Part shown: positions 2,281 through 55,678 of the stretch, in pieces
Position numbering within the stretch: the stretch's first letter is position 1
Layout of the letters: each line of letters opens with the position of its first letter
NCBI GenBank assembly: GCA_028716245.1
Contig: JAQUQW010000001.1
Span: forward strand, 549,925 to 613,924
DNA length: 64,000 bases
Source of the DNA: Candidatus Omnitrophota bacterium
GTDB taxonomy: Bacteria > Omnitrophota > Gorgyraeia > Gygaellales > Profunditerraquicolaceae
Reading direction: 5' to 3'
Notes under the pieces: generated by a model
Database searches by the model: none
The model's input: only the letters and a program-made list of their open reading frames with translations
What the model was told of the DNA's origin: nothing
Position numbers and translations under genes: made by a program

Positions 2281-2342
2281 ATAGCAAATTCCTTGCTCGT
2301 TTCACTCGCAAGGATTTCGTTAGATCAAAACTTAAGGTGCTC

Positions 2343-2400
2343 AAATTCGGCCAACAAACTTATGTTCGCTGTCGCTCCATAAGTTGGGGCCTCATTTAAG
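2343..2400 (-). repeat. partial, inverted copy of the 84-nt hairpin element (first hairpin only), directly after the tRNA-Pro 3-prime end
   Basis: The minus strand reads ttaaatgagg...aacttatggagcgacagcgaacataagtt...cgaattt. It shares ttaaatgag, the aactta/taagtt stem with a compensated C-to-T/G-to-A pair, and cgaattt with the full copies. The atcccgcc/ggcgggat hairpin is absent. Confidence 0.5.
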
Positions 2401-2474
2401 TCGGGGCGACAGGACTTGAACCTGTGACCTCAGCGTCCCGAACGCTGCGCTCTACCAAGCTGAGCCACGCCCCG
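2401..2474 (-). tRNA. tRNA-Pro (anticodon CGG)
   Basis: Reverse complement CGGGGCGTGGCTCAGCTTGGTAGAGCGCAGCGTTCGGGACGCTGAGGTCACAGGTTCAAGTCCTGTCGCCCCGA folds into a 74-nt cloverleaf: 7-bp acceptor stem, D-arm GCTC/GAGC, anticodon stem CAGCG/CGCTG with loop TTCGGGA, T-arm ACAGG/CCTGT. CCA is not encoded. Confidence 0.9.
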
Positions 2475-5011: not shown

Positions 5012-5424
5012 TTTTCTTTCTCAATTTTTACTTGGTCCAAAATGGCGTTGACAAATTTTCCGGACTCAAGGCCGGAATATTTCTTGGCCAACTCCACAGC
5101 TTCGTTGATGGCAACCTTAGGCGGAATATCCTGCCGAAACAAGAGTTCAAAACAACCCAGGCGCATAATATTGCGGTCCACAAATGCCATACGTTCAAGC
5201 TGCCAGTTGGCCGCGTATTTGCTGATCTTTTTATCAATCTCCTGCATATGGTTGACTACCCCGCCAAGCAGTTCCGCGGAAAAATCCTTAAGTTCACCGG
5301 GAATATCATCCCGCTCATTACTCAGCCAGAAATTTTCCAAAGTTTCCTGCCAATTACCGCGGGTAATCTCCACCTGGTAAAGCATTTGCAACACATATTC
5401 ACGCGCTTTAGTCCGTTTTCTCAT
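5008..5424 (-). CDS. nusB: transcription antitermination factor NusB
   Basis: MRKRTKAREYVLQMLYQ... is a typical NusB N-terminus. I chose the ATG at 5424; the track ORF start at 5454 lies inside the repeat element. There is no SD before the ATG. Confidence 0.85.
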   Translation of the reverse strand: MRKRTKAREYVLQMLYQVEITRGNWQETLENFWLSNERDDIPGELKDFSAELLGGVVNHMQEIDKKISKYAANWQLERMAFVDRNIMRLGCFELLFRQDIPPKVAINEAVELAKKYSGLESGKFVNAILDQVKIEKEK

Positions 5425-5516
5425 TAAATGAGCGCTTAAGTTATGGAGATGCATGTTGAATGTATCGACATAACTTAATGCGCGAATTTATCCCGCCGAA
5501 TAATTTGAGGCGGGAT
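5424..5516 (-). repeat. two-hairpin intergenic element, copy 1 (variant with a compensated stem and a larger loop)
   Basis: ttaaatgagcgcttaagttatg...cataacttaatgcgcgaatttatcccgccgaataatttgaggcgggat. It lies between the ribH stop and the nusB ATG, and the nusB ATG directly abuts it. Confidence 0.8.
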
Positions 5517-5523
5517 CAAGTTA

Positions 5524-5991
5524 TTATTTTAGCTGTCCTGATAAATTGATCATCTCAATAGCCGAAAGAGCCGCGTCCCTGCCCTTGTTGCCATCTTTAG
5601 AACCTGCGCGTTCTACCGCCTGTTCGATGCTATCGGCGGTAATTATACCAAAGATAACCGGTAAGTTGCAATCCAAAGATACCTTGGCAACGCCTTTGGC
5701 GACTTCCGAAGCGATATAATCAAAATGCGGAGTTGCCCCGCGGATCACCGTGCCCAAACAAATCAAAGCATCAAATGATTTTGTTTTAGCCATTTTCTGG
5801 GCAACCAGCGGAACCTCAAATGCTCCCGGAACCCAGGCTACCGTAATATCTTTTTCTTCGGCGCCATGCCTGATCAAAGTATCAACGCAGCCGCTGACCA
5901 GCTCTTTGGTCATGAAATCATTAAACCGGGAAGCCACCAAACCAAAACTCTGCCCCTTTGCCAACAGCTTACCTTCAATTACCTTTACCAT
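5524..5991 (-). CDS. ribH: 6,7-dimethyl-8-ribityllumazine synthase
   Basis: 155 aa in the lumazine synthase family (GAFEVP...[14 protein letters not shown]). Confidence 0.9.
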
Positions 5992-6004: not shown

Positions 6005-7213
6005 TTAAAGTTCCAACTGATGCCCTAGTTTCTCTTTTTTTGTTTTTAAATATTTATAATTTTCCGCGTTGGGCGCGATCTCTAAAGGCAGGCGCTCGGA
6101 AACCTCCAGGCCATAACCTTCCAGACCCACAATCTTGCGCGGATTATTCGTTAACAACCTGATCTTTTTAACCCCTAAATCTACCAGGATCTGGGCTCCG
6201 ATCCCGTAATCGCGCAGGTCAGCCTTATGCCCTAATGCTTCATTGGCTTGGACCGTATCCATTCCCTTATCCTGAAGATTGTACGCGCGTATCTTCTCAA
6301 CCAATCCAATCCCCCTGCCCTCCTGGTTCATATAAAGGATTATCCCTTTTTTCTCGCGGGCAATAATCTGCATGGCTTTCTCTAACTGCCGGCCGCAGTC
6401 ACAGCGTAATGAACCAAAAACATCTCCGGTTAAACACTCTGAATGCACGCGCACCAATATCGATTCATCAAACCCGCTCCCCATGCACAAAGCAATATGG
6501 GTTTGGCCATTGGTTTTATCGCGATAAATAGTTAACTTAAATTCTCCGAATTTTGTGGGCAATTTAGTCTGGACAACCGCTTCCACTAATTTTTCTCTCC
6601 TGCGGCGATATTCAATCAGGCTGGCAATAGTGCAGATCTTTAAACTATGCTTTTTGGCAAACTCCCGAAGCTGCGGCAGGCGGGCCATGGTCCCGTCATC
6701 ATTCATAATCTCACAAATCACTCCGGCAGGATAAAGCCCGGCCAGGCGCATTAAATCCAGGCTGGCTTCAGTATGCCCTGCCCTGACTAAAACCCCGCCC
6801 AGGTGGGAACGTAAAGGGAAAATATGCCCCGGACGAATTAGATCCTCCGGCTTAGCTTGAGGATTAATTAAAACTTCAATTGTCTTAGCCCGGTCATGAG
6901 CCGAAATTCCCGTAGTTATCCCGTGAGCCGCGTCCACTGAAATCATCCAGGCAGTTTTAAAAGGATCTTCTTTGGAAGCTGCCAGGGTATTCTTAAGCAT
7001 CGGGTCAAGCTCCAGGAAGCGCAGCCTTTCCTCCTCCATTGGAACACAAATAAGCCCCCGGCCGAATTTAGCCATAAAGTTTATATCTTCAGGCTTGACG
7101 CTTGAGGCAGCCATCACTAAATCACCCTCATTTTCGCGGTCCTCATCATCAATGACGACCACCATCTTACCGGCTTTTAAATCTTCGATAATTTCTGGAA
7201 TGGTGTTAAACAT
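6005..7213 (-). CDS. ribBA: bifunctional 3,4-dihydroxy-2-butanone-4-phosphate synthase / GTP cyclohydrolase II
   Basis: 402 aa: an N-terminal DHBP synthase domain and a C-terminal GTP cyclohydrolase II domain with the CxCxRQ zinc motif (CDCGRQ). Confidence 0.9.
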
Positions 7214-7228
7214 AAGTTATCCGCTCAA

Positions 7229-7256
7229 TAAAAAACCCGAAAACAGAATCTTCGGG
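7229..7256 (-). terminator. Rho-independent terminator/attenuator between the FMN aptamer and ribBA
   Basis: Minus strand CCCGAAGATTCTGTTTTCGGG followed by TTTTTTATT. Confidence 0.7.
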
Positions 7257-7271
7257 CGTATTGATTTTAAT

Positions 7272-7490
7272 CTTCTCTCATCTGGACTTTCCCATATAGA
7301 AGCAACACCCCGCGCTAAATGGAATCACGCGGGTGTCCATCTGCATGGACCATCGGCCCTGGAATCTCACCAGATCTGCGGGCGCCTGCATCTTTGCGCC
7401 TGCTCGCGGGCTTTTCACTTGGCGCTATTAGGAAGCGCCGGTGCGCGCTTGTTGCGCGACCGCCGGTAAGGATTTACACCTTGCCCTAAA
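7272..7490 (-). promoter_or_regulatory. FMN riboswitch (RFN element) aptamer
   Basis: Minus strand: GGGCAAGGTGTAAATCCTTACCGGCGGT...CCAAGTGAAAAGCCCGCGAGC...GCAGATCTGGTGAGATTCCAGGGCCGATGGT...AGTCCAGATGAGAGAAG. These match the conserved RFN blocks. The element is GC-rich relative to its surroundings and lies upstream of ribBA. Confidence 0.9.
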
Positions 7491-7505
7491 GATTAATTGT
7501 CTATT

Positions 7506-30359: not shown

Positions 30360-30512
30360 CTACTTGGCTTTTCCTAAAATCTTATACATACCGGTCCCGC
30401 ATTCAGGGCACTTGCCTTTCATCGCGGCGCGGCCGTTTTTCATGGTGACCTTCTGTTCATCCTTCATCGCTTTCTTGCCTTTGCATTTTACGCAATATCC
30501 TGTTTCTGCCAT
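30360..30512 (-). CDS. small zinc-ribbon protein (DUF5679-like), 50 aa
   Basis: MAETGYCVKCKGKKAMKDEQKVTMKNGRAAMKGKCPECGTGMYKILGKAK has two CxxC pairs. GGAGG lies 6 nt before the ATG. It falls below the ORF-track size cut-off. Confidence 0.65.
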   Translation of the reverse strand: MAETGYCVKCKGKKAMKDEQKVTMKNGRAAMKGKCPECGTGMYKILGKAK

Positions 30513-30524
30513 TTGTTTCCTCCT

Positions 30525-30608
30525 TTAAATGAGCACTTAACTTACGAACACGATAGTGTGAGTAAGTTAATGTGCGAATTTATCCCGCCGAATAATTTGA
30601 GGCGGGAG
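30525..30608 (-). repeat. two-hairpin intergenic element, copy 2
   Basis: ttaaatgagcacttaacttacgaacacgatagtgtgagtaagttaatgtgcgaatttatcccgccgaataatttgaggcgggag. It starts 12 nt before the Zn-ribbon ATG. Confidence 0.85.
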
Positions 30609-30666: not shown

Positions 30667-31668
30667 TTATTTACTGATGCTTTTCCTTCGGGAATATTTT
30701 TCTTCGATCTCTCCGACAATTTCTTCAATCAAATCTTCTAATGTCACCAACCCCAGAGTTTTTCTGTCTTTATCCACGATAATGGCTATCTGCCTTTTCT
30801 CCGTCTGGAACCTTTTTAGGAGGTCATTTACCCGCGTTGAACTGGAAACAAAACAGGCTTCATGAAGCAGATCCTGCAATAGGAATAAACCTTTTTCGCG
30901 CAATATATAAAGCAGGTCTTGGGCATAAACTATGCCGACAATATTATCTTTACTCTCCTTATATACCGGAAGCCGGGCGTGGCCTTCCTCGACAAATATA
31001 TTTAACAGGTCATTGGAAGTAGTATTTATATCTACGGCAATAATTTTTTCTTTAGGCACCATTATATCCGTCAGCTTAGTATCGCCGAATTCAAAGATAC
31101 GATGCAGCATCTTAAGCTGATCCTGGGTTAAAACCCCCTCCTCCTGGCCTATTTCAATCATCGTTTTTAATTCTTCTTCGGTAATCAAAGGGGATTTTTT
31201 AGCAACACTTAAACCAAAAATTTTTAAAATGAAATTGCTGATCCCGATAAAGAATATGATCAGGGGCTTAAAGATTACCAAAACTACCTCCATTAATGGC
31301 GCGGTAATTAAGGCCATCTTTTCCGTATGCTTAGCCGAAAGGATCTTGGGAGTAACTTCGCAGAAAATAAGCAGGACCATGGTGGTCACAAAAGTAGAAA
31401 CAACCACCCCCCAGCGATAACCGTAAACCTGGACAAAAATACCGGTTACAATCGATGAGACGGCAATATTGACGATATTATTGCCGATAAGTATGGCGGC
31501 AATTACTTTATCTAATTTAGACACAAGGCGATGGATACTGGAAGCCCCGGTAATCCCTTTTTGCACCATATGGCGCAACTTGATTTTACTTAATCCGATA
31601 ATTGAAGTCTCGGAAGCAGAGAAAAAGAACGAAAGCACAGCCAGGATTATTAAAATTAAAAATATCAT
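30667..31668 (-). CDS. CNNM/HlyC/CorC-family transporter (DUF21 + tandem CBS domains)
   Basis: 333 aa with an N-terminal DUF21 membrane domain and a CBS pair. Confidence 0.8.
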   Translation of the reverse strand: MIFLILIILAVLSFFFSASETSIIGLSKIKLRHMVQKGITGASSIHRLVSKLDKVIAAILIGNNIVNIAVSSIVTGIFVQVYGYRWGVVVSTFVTTMVLLIFCEVTPKILSAKHTEKMALITAPLMEVVLVIFKPLIIFFIGISNFILKIFGLSVAKKSPLITEEELKTMIEIGQEEGVLTQDQLKMLHRIFEFGDTKLTDIMVPKEKIIAVDINTTSNDLLNIFVEEGHARLPVYKESKDNIVGIVYAQDLLYILREKGLFLLQDLLHEACFVSSSTRVNDLLKRFQTEKRQIAIIVDKDRKTLGLVTLEDLIEEIVGEIEEKYSRRKSISK

Positions 31669-39887: not shown

Positions 39888-40953
39888 TCTTCTTCTCTAA
39901 TTCTGCCTTTAATAAAGCCGCAAAGAGTTCATCCATCTGCCCCTCCAGGATCGCCTCTAATTGGTGCGAGGTATAATTAATCCTGTGGTCGGTAACCCTG
40001 CGGTCCGGGAAATTATAAGTGCGGATTTTTTCACTGCGGTCGCCGGTCCCAATCTGGATTTTCCGGGCGCTGGATAATTTTTTTGCTTCGGCTTCGATTT
40101 TAACCTCTAAGATACGGGCGGCTAAAACCCGCATTGCCTTGGCTTTATTCTTTATCTGCGAACGCTCATCCTGGCAGGCAACTACTGTATTGGTTGGAAT
40201 ATGCGTAATCCTTACCGCTGAATCAGTCTTTTGCATATGCTGGCCGCCGGGCCCGCTTGAGCGGTAGGTATCAATCCTTAAGTCCTTTGGCTCAATAACC
40301 AAATCCACCTCTTCAGGTTCAAGCAATACCGCAACGGTCGCGGTAGAAGTATGGATCCTTCCCTGCGCCTCAGTAGTCGGAACCCGCTGCACGCGGTGCA
40401 CTCCGCTTTCAAATTTAAGGAAACGAAAAGAATCTTTTCCCTTTACGCCAAAAATTATTTCTTTGATTCCGCCGGCTTCATTGACGCTGGAGGACATCGG
40501 CTCAATCACCCAGCCTTTAAGCGCGGCATATTTTGAATACATCCGGTAAAGATCCGCCGCAAAAAGCCCGGCTTCATCTCCGCCGGTACCCTGCCGGATT
40601 TCAATGATGCAATTACGGCCGGCGTCTTTATCCTCGCCGGCCAGGATTTTTTTTAATTCCGACTCCTTGTCTGTTTTTTTGGCTTCCAGGTTTCTAAGCT
40701 CCTCCTGCGCCAACTCCAGGAAATCTTTATCATGCTTTCCGGATAACACGCTCTCCAGGCCGCTTATCTCCTTAAGCAGGTTTTTGTAGTCGCGAAATAT
40801 CGAAACTACCTCCTTAAGATCGGAAAGCTCTTTGGCCAGTTTATTATATTGCTGGCGGTCGGCAATCTGTTCATTGCTAGCTAGAAGATGTTCCAGCTCT
40901 TGGTAACGCGCAGTTAGTTTTTCTAACTGCTCATGCATTTTATTTTTTACCAT
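39880..40953 (-). CDS. prfA: peptide chain release factor 1
   Basis: [19 protein letters not shown] (GGQ) and a PTT tripeptide region ([17 protein letters not shown]). Confidence 0.9.
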
Positions 40954-41140
40954 ATTTTTTCATAAACTTATCCACCCGGCCGGCGGAATCCACCAGCTTT
41001 TGTTTTCCGGTAAAGAACGGATGGCACTTTGAGCAAATCTCAACGCGGATACTGGGTTTAGTCGAGCGGGTATGCACCGTCTCACCGCAGGCGCAGACAA
41101 TCGTGCTCTCTTTGTAATTGGGGTGAATTTTTTCTTTCAT
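40940..41140 (-). CDS. rpmE: 50S ribosomal protein L31 (zinc-binding C4 form)
   Basis: MKEKIHPNY...CACGETVHT...[13 protein letters not shown]. Confidence 0.9.
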
Positions 41141-41152
41141 TTCTTTTCTCCT

Positions 41153-41236
41153 TTAAATGAGCGCTTAACTTACGAATACGACAGTGTGAGTAAGTTAATA
41201 CGCGAATTTATCCCGCCGAATAATTTGAGGCGGGAT
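41153..41236 (-). repeat. two-hairpin intergenic element, copy 3
   Basis: It fills the gap from the rho stop codon (41237) to 12 nt before the rpmE ATG. Confidence 0.85.
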
Positions 41237-42496
41237 CTATTTCTGGTTCATGCTGTTTAAAAACTCTTCATTATTCTTTGTCTTTCCTAACTTTTCAATC
41301 AATAACTCCATCGCCTCCACATTATTTAACTCATTTAAAACTTTCCGCAAGATCCAGGTTTTCGACAATACATCCGGTTTGACCAGAAGCTCTTCATGGC
41401 GGGTGTTGGAACGCTTGATGTCAATGGCCGGATAAATCCTGCGCTGGAATAAATTACGGTCCAGCTGGGTTTCCATATTGCCGGTGCCCTTAAACTCTTC
41501 AAAAATAACTTCATCCATCCGGCTTCCGGTATCAACCAGGGCTGTGGCGATAATCGTAAGACTGCCGCCTTCATCTACCGCCCGGGCCGCTCCGAAGAAT
41601 CTTTTTGGTTTCTGCAGGGCGTTGGAATCAATACCGCCGGAAAGGACCTTGCCGCTGTGCGGGACCACCGAGTTATAGGCGCGCGCCAGGCGGGTTATGC
41701 TGTCTAAAAGAATTACTACATCGCGTTTATGTTCAACTAAACGTTTGGCCTTCTCCAAAACAATTTCGGCTACCTGCACGTGGCGCTCCGGCGGCTCATC
41801 AAAAGTGGAGGAAATTACCTCGCCTTTAACATTACGCTGCATATCCGTAACTTCTTCCGGACGCTCATCAATAAGCAAAACGATCAAAATTACGTCAGGA
41901 TTATTGGTGGTGATAGCATTGGCGATCTTCTGCAGCAAAACAGTTTTGCCGCTATAAGGCTGGGCAACGATTAAACCGCGCTGGCCCCGGCCAATCGGAG
42001 TAAGCAGGCTCATAATCCGCATAGATAATTCATCCGGCTTAGTTTCCATGTTAAACGGGGCGCGGGGATAAACGGGGGTGAGGTTATCAAAAAGAACTTT
42101 TTCTTTTACTTCTTCCGGATTTTCAAAATTCACCGCTTCCACCTTAAGCAGGGCAAAATATTTTTCCCCTTCTTTAGGCGGGCGGATCTGGCCGCTTACC
42201 GTATCTCCGGTGCGCAGCTCAAACTTCCTAATTTGCGACGGAGAAATATAAATATCATCCGGACAAGGCAGATAATTGTAATTGGGGCTTCTTAAGAAAC
42301 CAAAGCCCTCGGAAAGGATTTCTAATACACCCTCCCCGAACATCAACCCTTCTTTCTCAGCCTGAGCCTGAAGTATTTTAAAAATCAGGTCCTGTTTCTT
42401 CAAGCCGCTGGTGCCGTTGGCATTTAATTCTTTAGCTAATTTATTCAACTCGCTAATTTTCATTTCTTTGAGATTCTTTATATCTAACTTTTCCAC
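41237..42496 (-). CDS. rho: transcription termination factor Rho
   Basis: 419 aa with an N-terminal RNA-binding domain, a Walker A-containing RecA-like ATPase domain and a Q-loop. Confidence 0.95.
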
Positions 42497-53430: not shown

Positions 53431-53786
53431 TAACTTGTTGCTTCTTCCTTACTTTCTATTTTAGTAGCGTGCTTGCCGACCTTTTCCCTTAGGTAGTAAA
53501 GCTTGGCTTTTTTAACTTTACCGGAACGGATCAGCTCAATACGCTCGATAACCGGAGAATAAAGCGGAAATACGCGTTCAATCCCCTCGCCGAAGGAAAC
53601 TTTTCTCACCGTGAAGTTAAGTTTGGCTCCGGAGCCGCTCTTGGCGATCACCACGCCCTCAAAAGGATGCAGGCGGAACTTATCCGGACCTTCCGGGATC
53701 CTGGTCAGCACCTTTACCGTATCTCCGACATTAATGGCAGGCATCTGCTTCTTGGCAAATCCCGCCTCAATTGATTTGATGTCCAT
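53430..53786 (-). CDS. rplS: 50S ribosomal protein L19
   Basis: MDIKSIEAGFAKKQMPAINVGDTVKV... The true start is the ATG at 53786, preceded by AGGAGG. The track ORF start at 53846 reads through the repeat element. Confidence 0.9.
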   Translation of the reverse strand: MDIKSIEAGFAKKQMPAINVGDTVKVLTRIPEGPDKFRLHPFEGVVIAKSGSGAKLNFTVRKVSFGEGIERVFPLYSPVIERIELIRSGKVKKAKLYYLREKVGKHATKIESKEEATS

Positions 53787-53800
53787 TCTTGTTGCCTCCT

Positions 53801-53884
53801 TTAAATGAGCGCTTAACTTACGAACACGATAGTGCGAGTAAGTCAATGCGCGAATTTATCCCGCCGAATAATTTGAGGCGGGAT
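53801..53884 (-). repeat. two-hairpin intergenic element, copy 4
   Basis: ttaaatgagcgcttaacttacgaacacgatagtgcgagtaagtcaatgcgcgaatttatcccgccgaataatttgaggcgggat. It sits between the trmD stop (53892) and the rplS SD. Confidence 0.85.
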
Positions 53885-53891
53885 CTTACTC

Positions 53892-55678
<1,787 letters not shown>

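Follow-up and report, generated by a model that had tools for sequence, protein, structure and literature searches.

How is nusB translated when no Shine-Dalgarno (SD) sequence precedes its start codon and a two-hairpin RNA element fills the gap between it and ribH? This question is raised by a 64,000-nt stretch of Candidatus Omnitrophota DNA (contig JAQUQW010000001.1, positions 549,925 to 613,924 of the forward strand), hereafter the window, from whose first letter all positions are counted. A preliminary description of the window listed four copies of the element and treated copy 1, at the ribH-nusB junction, as unusual in its second hairpin and in the lack of an SD behind it. We think it probable that copy 1 is a dispersed repeat of the REP/ERIC/BOX kind residing in a rib-nusB operon, that the SD-less, ribH-coupled start of nusB is an old trait and no product of the element, and that ribosomes load here in an SD-independent way. 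The junction is laid out as follows.

5524..5991, minus strand: ribH (6,7-dimethyl-8-ribityllumazine synthase), the upstream gene, an open reading frame (ORF) matching Pfam DMRL_synthase at E = 1.3e-58
5526-5524, minus strand: ribH stop codon, UAA
minus strand: 7-nt spacer from the ribH stop to hairpin P1, which begins 8 nt past the stop codon
5516-5509, 5508-5498 and 5497-5490, minus strand: hairpin P1 of copy 1, with 5′ arm AUCCCGCC, loop UCAAAUUAUUC and 3′ arm GGCGGGAU
5489-5484, minus strand: linker AAAUUC, single-stranded and A/U-rich, which together with the final bases of P1 forms the conserved motif GGGAUAAAUUCG
5432..5483, minus strand: hairpin P2 of copy 1, consisting of GCGC (5483-5480), a bulged A (5479), UUAAGUUAUG (5478-5469), a 23-nt loop (5468-5446), CAUAACUUAA (5445-5436) and GCGC (5435-5432)
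5425..5431, minus strand: conserved tail UCAUUUA, abutting the nusB start codon
5008..5424, minus strand: nusB, 138 amino acids, ATG at 5424-5422 without an SD; Pfam NusB covers residues 6-132

There is indeed no SD before the ATG at 5424; the anti-SD duplex available to positions -20 to -3 amounts to only -0.6 kcal/mol. We compared this junction with orthologous ones gathered via NusB homologues (four from encoding-contig look-ups, 80 loci from JGI metagenome contigs; loci carry L numbers below), taking an anti-SD duplex of -6 kcal/mol or stronger as SD-like. An SD-like sequence occurs in just 9 of 61 distinct ribH-nusB junctions of related Omnitrophota. The missing SD is therefore real but no peculiarity of copy 1, being shared by the other 52. 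In 36 of the 61, the gap between the two genes is at most 22 nt, typically 1–7 nt, and holds no element (e.g., AAAATAATATG, TAAACCTATG). These short-gap, mostly SD-less junctions imply that the lineage normally expresses nusB with no SD and immediately after the ribH stop. Coupled translation, one of the mechanisms that the preliminary description had proposed for nusB, fits those junctions (gaps of 1–22 nt) but not the window, where stop and start lie 97 nt apart with two stable hairpins between them. All 61 junctions place the start, 57 times ATG and four times GTG, at the same codon, that of MRKRTKAREY; across ~85 loci this N-terminus is kept with ATG or GTG at the same position, often 1–7 nt past the ribH stop, and all 120 of the NusB homologues among the matches listed are 138 amino acids long.

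Weak initiation signals are also common elsewhere in the window. Among its 61 long ORFs, an SD at least as strong as -6 kcal/mol precedes the first start codon of only ~13, and the neighbors ribD, ribBA and the PHP gene have no clear SD either. Because SDs are mostly absent at orthologous junctions and often weak or absent in the window, the element is not what deprives nusB of its SD. Judged by the 61 junctions, a comparison that the preliminary description had called for, the SD-less nusB start is an old and ordinary trait of the lineage, coupled to ribH and seen with or without the element. A leader ORF ending at the UAA of UAAUG was also considered and rejected; a stop lies four codons upstream in that frame, and there is no start.

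What, then, is the element? Copy 1 is 92 nt long (5425-5516, minus strand), and its tail, CUCAUUUA, runs into the nusB ATG. It is predicted to fold with -35.2 kcal/mol and a z-score of -5.6; none of 200 shuffled sequences is equally stable. The P2 stem of 10 bp is followed by the bulged A and then by the further GCGC/GCGC helix, which covaries, being GCAC/GUGC in copy 2. The P2 loop has 23 nt in copy 1 against 16 nt in copies 2–4, as first described. The paired change on the P2 arms relative to copies 2–4 (UUAACUUAC/GUAAGUUAA) is also compensated, but it involves two pairs, each doubly compensated (C-G became G-C in one and U-A in the other), and an additional G-C pair, and the outermost arm pair originally quoted does not exist, the plus-strand arms being CTTAAGTTATG and CATAACTTAAT. 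Two details at the start codon need similar adjustment: the conserved CUCAUUUAA abuts the ATG but shares one A with it, and AAAGGAGG, given for copies 2–4, is replaced by AAAGGAGA in copy 3. Since P1 and linker of copy 1 are identical to those of copies 2–4 (41/41 positions), while P2 differs, copy 1 appears to be a chimera of the genome's standard P1 and linker with a locus-specific P2.

The other copies in the window, including a diverged fifth that had been overlooked, are these.

30519..30608, minus strand: copy 2, between a CNNM/CBS gene (30667-31668) and a 50-amino-acid DUF5679 zinc-ribbon ORF (30360-30512); the tail is followed by AGGAGG
41147..41236, minus strand: copy 3, between rho (41237-42496) and rpmE (40940-41140); the tail is followed by AGGAGA
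53795..53884, minus strand: copy 4, between trmD (53892-54572) and rplS (ATG at 53786)
2288..2401, plus strand: copy 5, diverged, of a P1 subfamily with CCUUGC/GCAAGG, with an extra middle module AAGGUGCUCAAAUUCG
7211..7226, minus strand: GAGCGGAUAACUUAUG, located in the ribBA leader, what remains of an antisense element of which L027 and L005 have an intact version at this site

The first four copies are 92–100% alike, copies 2–4 being mutually 92–95% identical, and the fifth is diverged. Copy 5 is antisense to the tRNA-Pro gene (2400-2474) and the acylphosphatase gene (2008-2280) that flank it; the same tRNA-Pro/antisense-element arrangement recurs in L011, L035 and L070. Five non-coding copies in 64 kb, at non-homologous intergenic sites, are what one expects of small dispersed repeats. 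Most long ORFs of the window (58/61) are on the minus strand, so the common orientation of copies 1–4 cannot separate a bias toward gene sense from one toward replication strand.

We also sought copies with blastn-short and with a covariance model, R1, built from nine copies; in 0.92 Mb of contigs from related Omnitrophota, R1 detects 26 copies at E ≤ 1e-3. Sense copies lie between ribH and nusB (many lineages), between ribBA and ribH (L016, L018, L078), between the flavin mononucleotide (FMN) riboswitch terminator and ribBA (L008, L032, L064), between ribD and ribE (L077), between groES and groEL (L002) and upstream of rpsP (L003), in addition to the trmD-rplS, rho-rpmE and CNNM-DUF5679 copies of the window. 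Antisense copies are found between the riboswitch terminator and ribBA (L005, L027 and others), after tRNA-Pro (the window's 2288-2401, plus strand; L011, L035, L070) and between rho and rpmE (L099). Throughout the family, the linker motif is GGGAUAAAUUCG and the tail [G/C]CUCAYUUAA. P1 often bears a covarying extension hairpin, P1b; the window's 11-nt P1 loop, CUCA-AAUU-AUUCG, seems to derive from it by deletion. For P2, three or more mutually unrelated sequence types exist, all of them hairpins. The P1 loop also often holds a perfect, covarying nested palindrome, such as AUGCUGAAAUUAUC-GUA-GAUAAUUUCAGCAU (L005, 9886-9923; junctions of L015, L022, L044, L061, L074 and L077).

Structure is maintained across these copies. 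Fold z-scores range from -3.8 to -5.6. In the 26-copy alignment, which was fitted to R1 and so flatters both figures, pairing extends to 95.5% of cells, and both sides have changed in 15 of 21 pairs; none of 500 shuffles reaches the observed values, and slid controls are 31–44% paired. Hairpins maintained by compensatory change are a further property of small dispersed repeats, and the compensated P2 stem of copy 1 is, as far as comparison of sequences can tell, real evidence for such maintenance. Independent evidence comes from the ratio of G.U to A.C, which is 16:1 in copies sense to their genes and hence points to hairpins that matter on the mRNA-sense strand, or in single-stranded DNA of that strand.

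Orthologous sites differ in whether they hold the element at all, as is again typical of small dispersed repeats. L004, the nearest relative (90.8% DNA identity over ribH and nusB), has a 7-nt junction, TAATAATCTGATGAG, with no element. L005/L006 (82.9%) have it at the corresponding position and share the P2 variant; over 81 nt, the element is 92.6% identical, and its P1 loop is interrupted by a 38-nt nested palindrome. A single clade of ~90% identity (L005, L014, L024, L015, L034) presents four element forms and one empty site. Remnants are seen as well: L051 retains the P1 5′ arm (TAATAACCTAATCCCGACGA-ATG), and L017 the P2 3′ arm of the copy-1 type plus the tail. The compensated stem and expanded loop are consequently not special to copy 1; because the same variant stands at the orthologous site of L005/L006 and survives as a remnant in L017, it did not arise by compensation inside this genome's family, and the comparison identifies it as an inherited P2 lineage. 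The trmD-rplS site is empty in L091-L098 (five distinct relatives). At rho-rpmE, L100 and L104 have no element, and L099 has an antisense copy of another subfamily. At ribBA, the start codon lies inside GAGCGGAUAACUUAUG, a former P2 arm, and the gene has no SD here; comparison with L027 suggests that the remnant was left by a deletion between two ATGs. These sequence comparisons display gain, loss and inversion, and probably gene conversion. At the nusB site, the element may have inserted once long ago and then been lost many times, or it may have inserted there repeatedly.

Taken together, these features identify the element, as far as sequence and predicted fold can show, as a previously undescribed Omnitrophota family of small dispersed structured intergenic repeats. 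At its gathering score, Rfam recognizes only the FMN riboswitch and a tRNA in the window; permissive searches, extended to E = 10 for copy 4 and to E = 0.5 for seven loci, yielded nothing credible for the element, and we found no account of such an element in the literature. The P1 3′ arm plus linker, as a 20-mer, has no match in viral contigs, and no separated 5′ and 3′ modules around a larger insert, as a cognate autonomous element would have, occur in 1.07 Mb.

Several observations weigh against a dispersed repeat and against the initiation that we propose for it. No transposase was found in the loci searched. Comparison of the filled site in the window with the empty one in L004 leaves room for at most a 2-nt AT duplication, and no target-site duplication (TA, TAA, TTAA) is consistent across the copies compared. 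There are no terminal inverted repeats either: the 5′ end (AUCCCGCC...) does not complement the 3′ end (...GCGCUCAUUUA), and the hairpins are internal. The exact P1-plus-linker 33-mer occurs in only 3 GTDB species genomes, none of them the source genome, and the loop-plus-linker pattern has 0 matches in JGI metagenome contigs. The unpaired motifs (CUCA...AUUCG in P1, GGGAUAAAUUCG and GCUCAUUUAA) are conserved down to 64% NusB identity (L074, L077), deeper than is usual for purely selfish repeats, which may point to a sequence-specific partner. The nusB start is not unusual in its predicted accessibility (mean unpaired probability 0.53, against 0.38–0.49 at empty junctions, with the AUG partly paired in a weak CUCA/UGAG hairpin), and start-site accessibility does not separate element-bearing from element-free sites. 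Finally, random insertion does not predict the zero-spacer placement of the copies. All 18 sense copies in the 26-copy alignment begin 0–12 nt past the upstream stop and reach the downstream SD or start codon with no spacer left. Where the gene has an SD in relatives with an empty site (ribH, rplS, rpmE), AGGAG comes directly after the tail; for nusB and ribE, SD-less and coupled in empty relatives, and for ribBA, with no SD in the window, ATG does. Either insertions are targeted, or deletion pressure trims the dispensable flanks of an element that is retained.

With a dispersed repeat as the favored reading, expression of nusB might proceed as follows. An FMN riboswitch (Rfam RF00050, 77.8 bits; 7266-7497, minus strand) with a canonical intrinsic terminator (7235-7257, minus strand) lies upstream of ribBA, so that the whole ribBA-ribH-nusB-PHP-ribD-ribE string stands behind a riboflavin-sensing leader and nusB would be under FMN control. 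Within this operon, the element would be transcribed and its mRNA would form P1 and P2, with the conserved A/U-rich linker between them and CUCAUUUA ending at the nusB AUG. The default mode in the lineage would be stop-start coupling to ribH. At the filled junction, reinitiation by the ribosome that terminates on ribH is unlikely, because 97 nt and two stable hairpins intervene, and we infer that ribosomes load without an SD. A likely loading site would be the A/U-rich stretch at the foot of P2, CUCAUUUAAUGAGAAAACGGACUAAAG, for which at most a weak 4-bp CUCA/UGAG hairpin is predicted; loading could be of the standby type or S1-dependent, as for many genes of this genome with weak or no SD. Selection or gene conversion would maintain the sense-strand hairpin, accounting for the P2 compensation, with the variant inherited at the locus and P1 and linker homogenized with the genome's dominant subfamily.

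The element itself probably has a role as an intercistronic RNA module. P1, 8 nt past the ribH stop, is close enough to meet the terminating ribosome. By analogy with ERIC, REP and Correia repeats (PMC3049150), the element may determine the relative stability of mRNA, or its linker may undergo cleavage. A cut at AAAUU in the linker would place P1 as a cap at the 3′ end of the upstream RNA and P2 as one at the 5′ end of the downstream RNA.

It is conceivable, though we rate it as fairly unlikely, that the element is instead a dedicated cis-acting RNA: an intercistronic operator, stabilizer or processing site for a lineage-specific RNA-binding protein or RNase, which would lie between weakly and strongly expressed cistrons, present the downstream ribosome-binding site and drive nusB initiation itself. 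Unpaired motifs conserved over deep divergence would be explained in this way, as would the reach of each sense copy from within ~12 nt of the upstream stop to the exact SD or ATG and the G.U over A.C asymmetry that favors the mRNA strand. RNase E prefers R-N↓W-U-U, and the linker, with AA↓AUU between two hairpins, is a candidate site. SD ownership bears on the same point, and here the evidence from sequence comparison conflicts. In copy 4, SD and spacer read AAAGGAGGCAACAAGA and agree with those of the rpsP copy of L003, AAAGGAGGCAACAAC, not with those of the rplS orthologues (AAAGGAG[T/C]AGTAGTA), as if the element had brought its own; the copy 3 SD, AAAGGAGAAAAGAA, resembles the orthologous SD in L104, AAAGGAGAAGAAGAG, and so looks host-derived. 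A dedicated RNA is harder to reconcile with copies antisense to the surrounding genes (2288-2401 in the window; L005, L027, L099), and with frequent presence or absence in close relatives and remnants, by which it is dispensable at each site. Moreover, the genes downstream (nusB, ribH, ribBA, ribE, rplS, rpmE, rpsP, groEL, DUF5679) have no function in common, and nested palindromes break the "conserved" P1 loop.

A more elaborate possibility, to which we attach little probability, is a portable intercistronic module specific to the phylum. Such a module would spread between operons, be cut by an endonuclease at AAAUU, expose the downstream start, in most copies together with a AAAGGAGG of its own and at nusB bare, and both uncouple and boost the downstream cistron; in a variant of this idea, the tail would be the phylum's boxA and recruit Nus factors.

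Taken by itself, boxA identity of the tail, GCUCAUUUAA, is improbable. The tail would be a NusB/NusE site beside a boxB-like hairpin, serving Nus autoregulation at nusB and Nus recruitment to highly expressed operons, and the presence of nusB, rplS, rpmE and rpsP among the downstream genes would suit it. BoxA sequences are reported at distances of up to 50 nt from start codons, many of these belonging to translation genes; in Pseudomonas, a putative one lies upstream of ribH-nusB (PMC5725501). Against the gamma-proteobacterial consensus GYTCTTTAANA (PMC5725501), which may not be that of this phylum, GCTCATTTAAA matches ungapped at 9 of 11 positions, and the match over GCTC-TTTAA is full if one inserted base is allowed; however, the mismatches fall at positions said to matter. 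The tail can also pair with the linker (UAAAU/AUUUA in copy 2), and it appears unchanged in antisense copies and before riboflavin genes. Counts of the canonical motif in the loci are uninformative, and neither the window nor the fetched relative loci contain an rRNA gene whose boxA leader could be compared.

Equally improbable is an intrinsic terminator or attenuator that lowers read-through from ribH, with nusB served by a promoter of its own. P1 is G+C-rich, some members (L002, L066, L077) have a short G+C-rich P2 followed by UCAUUUU, and BIME-type repeats are reported to attenuate transcription (PMC3049150). Nevertheless, P1 is followed by AUAAAUUC and P2 by UCAUUUAA, neither with a U tract, and the scan that finds the canonical riboswitch terminator with its long U run (7235-7257) flags none at 5424-5516. 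Promoter-like matches in the region number 4 versus 4.2 expected in shuffles, with none in the element, and termination would be counterproductive before rplS, rpmE or groEL. We rejected a promoter inside the element on similar grounds, as there is no sigma-70-like match and P2 is too variable to carry one.

Least credible of all is that nusB starts elsewhere behind a conventional SD and the missing SD is an annotation artefact: such a start was looked for and not found, since the sole upstream in-frame ATG (5454; 148-amino-acid ORF) falls within the P2 loop, lacks an SD (+0.3 kcal/mol) and is not conserved in L005, while the start at MRKRTKAREY is kept in ~85 loci, the Pfam NusB profile is covered from residue 6, and the next Met (residue 14) would cut into the domain.

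Other candidate identities were set aside on structural grounds. A K-turn in the internal loop of P1 is excluded by a 3′ strand without a GA dinucleotide. IS200/IS605-type ends or an attC site do not fit, as the sequences of P1 and P2 bear no relation to each other and the element is flanked by core genes instead of cassettes. A MITE (miniature inverted-repeat transposable element) should have terminal inverted repeats, and the ends here are not complementary. An E. coli-type REP is likewise a poor match to an element of 90–140 nt with two hairpins and no GTAG at the hairpin foot.

Other repeats were encountered in the same gene neighborhoods. The ribBA-ribH spacers of L005, L020, L025, L026, L034, L047, L064 and L070 are 50–120 nt long and carry loose GGTAG/GTAGNTAG repeats (e.g., gggtaggtagtagttagtaggtagcatatag); these are a different repeat type, and the corresponding junction of the window measures just 13 nt. 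Among more distant relatives, L089 carries a 346-nt array of repeated hairpin-like units (acacccgaac...ggttcggt) at its ribBA-ribH junction, before ribH, and L090 a CCGATAA x5 tandem repeat (2891-2978) before nusB. At the rpmE-prfA junction of L104/L105 (99 nt), a degenerate element-like sequence, …ggcgggttagtaagtcaagtatctattt-ATG, ends at the prfA ATG with no SD; rpmE and prfA overlap in the window.

Omnitrophota are uncultivated and have small, compact genomes, and their gene-expression signals are almost wholly uncharted. An element that fills intercistronic gaps of core operons (rib-nusB, rho-rpmE, trmD-rplS, groES-groEL) changes how those operons are read and how starts are called. It also shows how stop-start coupling can break without loss of downstream expression. 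Close relatives in which the same junction is filled, empty or inverted constitute a natural experiment on the effect of structured inserts on SD-less coupled genes. The family merits a covariance model for masking and annotation in metagenome-assembled genomes. If its single-stranded motifs are indeed a processing or protein-binding site, the element would represent a new class of cis-acting RNA.

How does the element compare with known systems? Termination-reinitiation explains SD-less nusB in the 36 junctions with a 1–22 nt gap, where stop and start are coupled; as usually defined, it does not apply to copy 1, with its gap of 97 nt. Among known repeats, BOX, RUP and SPRITE of Streptococcus pneumoniae and the Correia elements of Neisseria are, like the element, modular with variable internal modules (compare the optional P1b and the middle module), and they are transcribed with neighboring genes and form stem-loops. 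BOX, RUP and Correia have terminal inverted repeats, and RUP and Correia target duplications as well; neither can be defined for the element, whose ends are unrelated. Gene callers are misled into extending ORFs through such repeats (PMC3049150). In the present data, public gene calls for ribosomal protein L31 of 99–107 amino acids instead of 66 (P0241, P0244, P0245, P0247, P0251, P0265) appear over-extended; that of P0241, checked in L099, runs through the antisense element. Likewise, the window's rplS ORF for L19 (53430-53846, minus strand), 138 amino acids from a TTG instead of 118, runs through the element upstream.

ERIC/IRU sequences of enterobacteria, 127-bp imperfect palindromes transcribed in intergenic regions, resemble the element as small structured non-coding repeats between co-transcribed genes. 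Both vary in presence among relatives, and both are predicted to fold in mRNA. ERIC is reported to alter transcript stability in an orientation-dependent manner via an RNase E site (as summarized in PMC3049150). There is no sequence similarity between the two, and their architecture differs, ERIC being one long imperfect palindrome, and the element two independent hairpins with conserved single-stranded motifs. The element, from an uncultivated phylum and known from sequence alone, also differs in filling the exact interval between the region of the upstream stop and the SD or ATG downstream.

The REP/BIME repeats of E. coli and its relatives are, like the element, extragenic palindromes that often lie in operons just past stop codons and whose hairpins are kept by compensatory change. 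They are known to stabilize upstream mRNA or attenuate transcription. Reportedly, Liang, Rudd & Deutscher found in 2015 that REPs near a stop codon interfere with termination of the upstream cistron. REP units are ~35 nt long, with a 5′ GTAG signature and a RAYT transposase, and neither signature nor RAYT is seen for the element. Unlike the element, REPs are not positioned at the downstream ribosome-binding site. It is this strict placement from stop to ribosome-binding site, along with single-stranded motifs conserved across a wide span of Omnitrophota, that keeps the element of interest next to its better-known counterparts.

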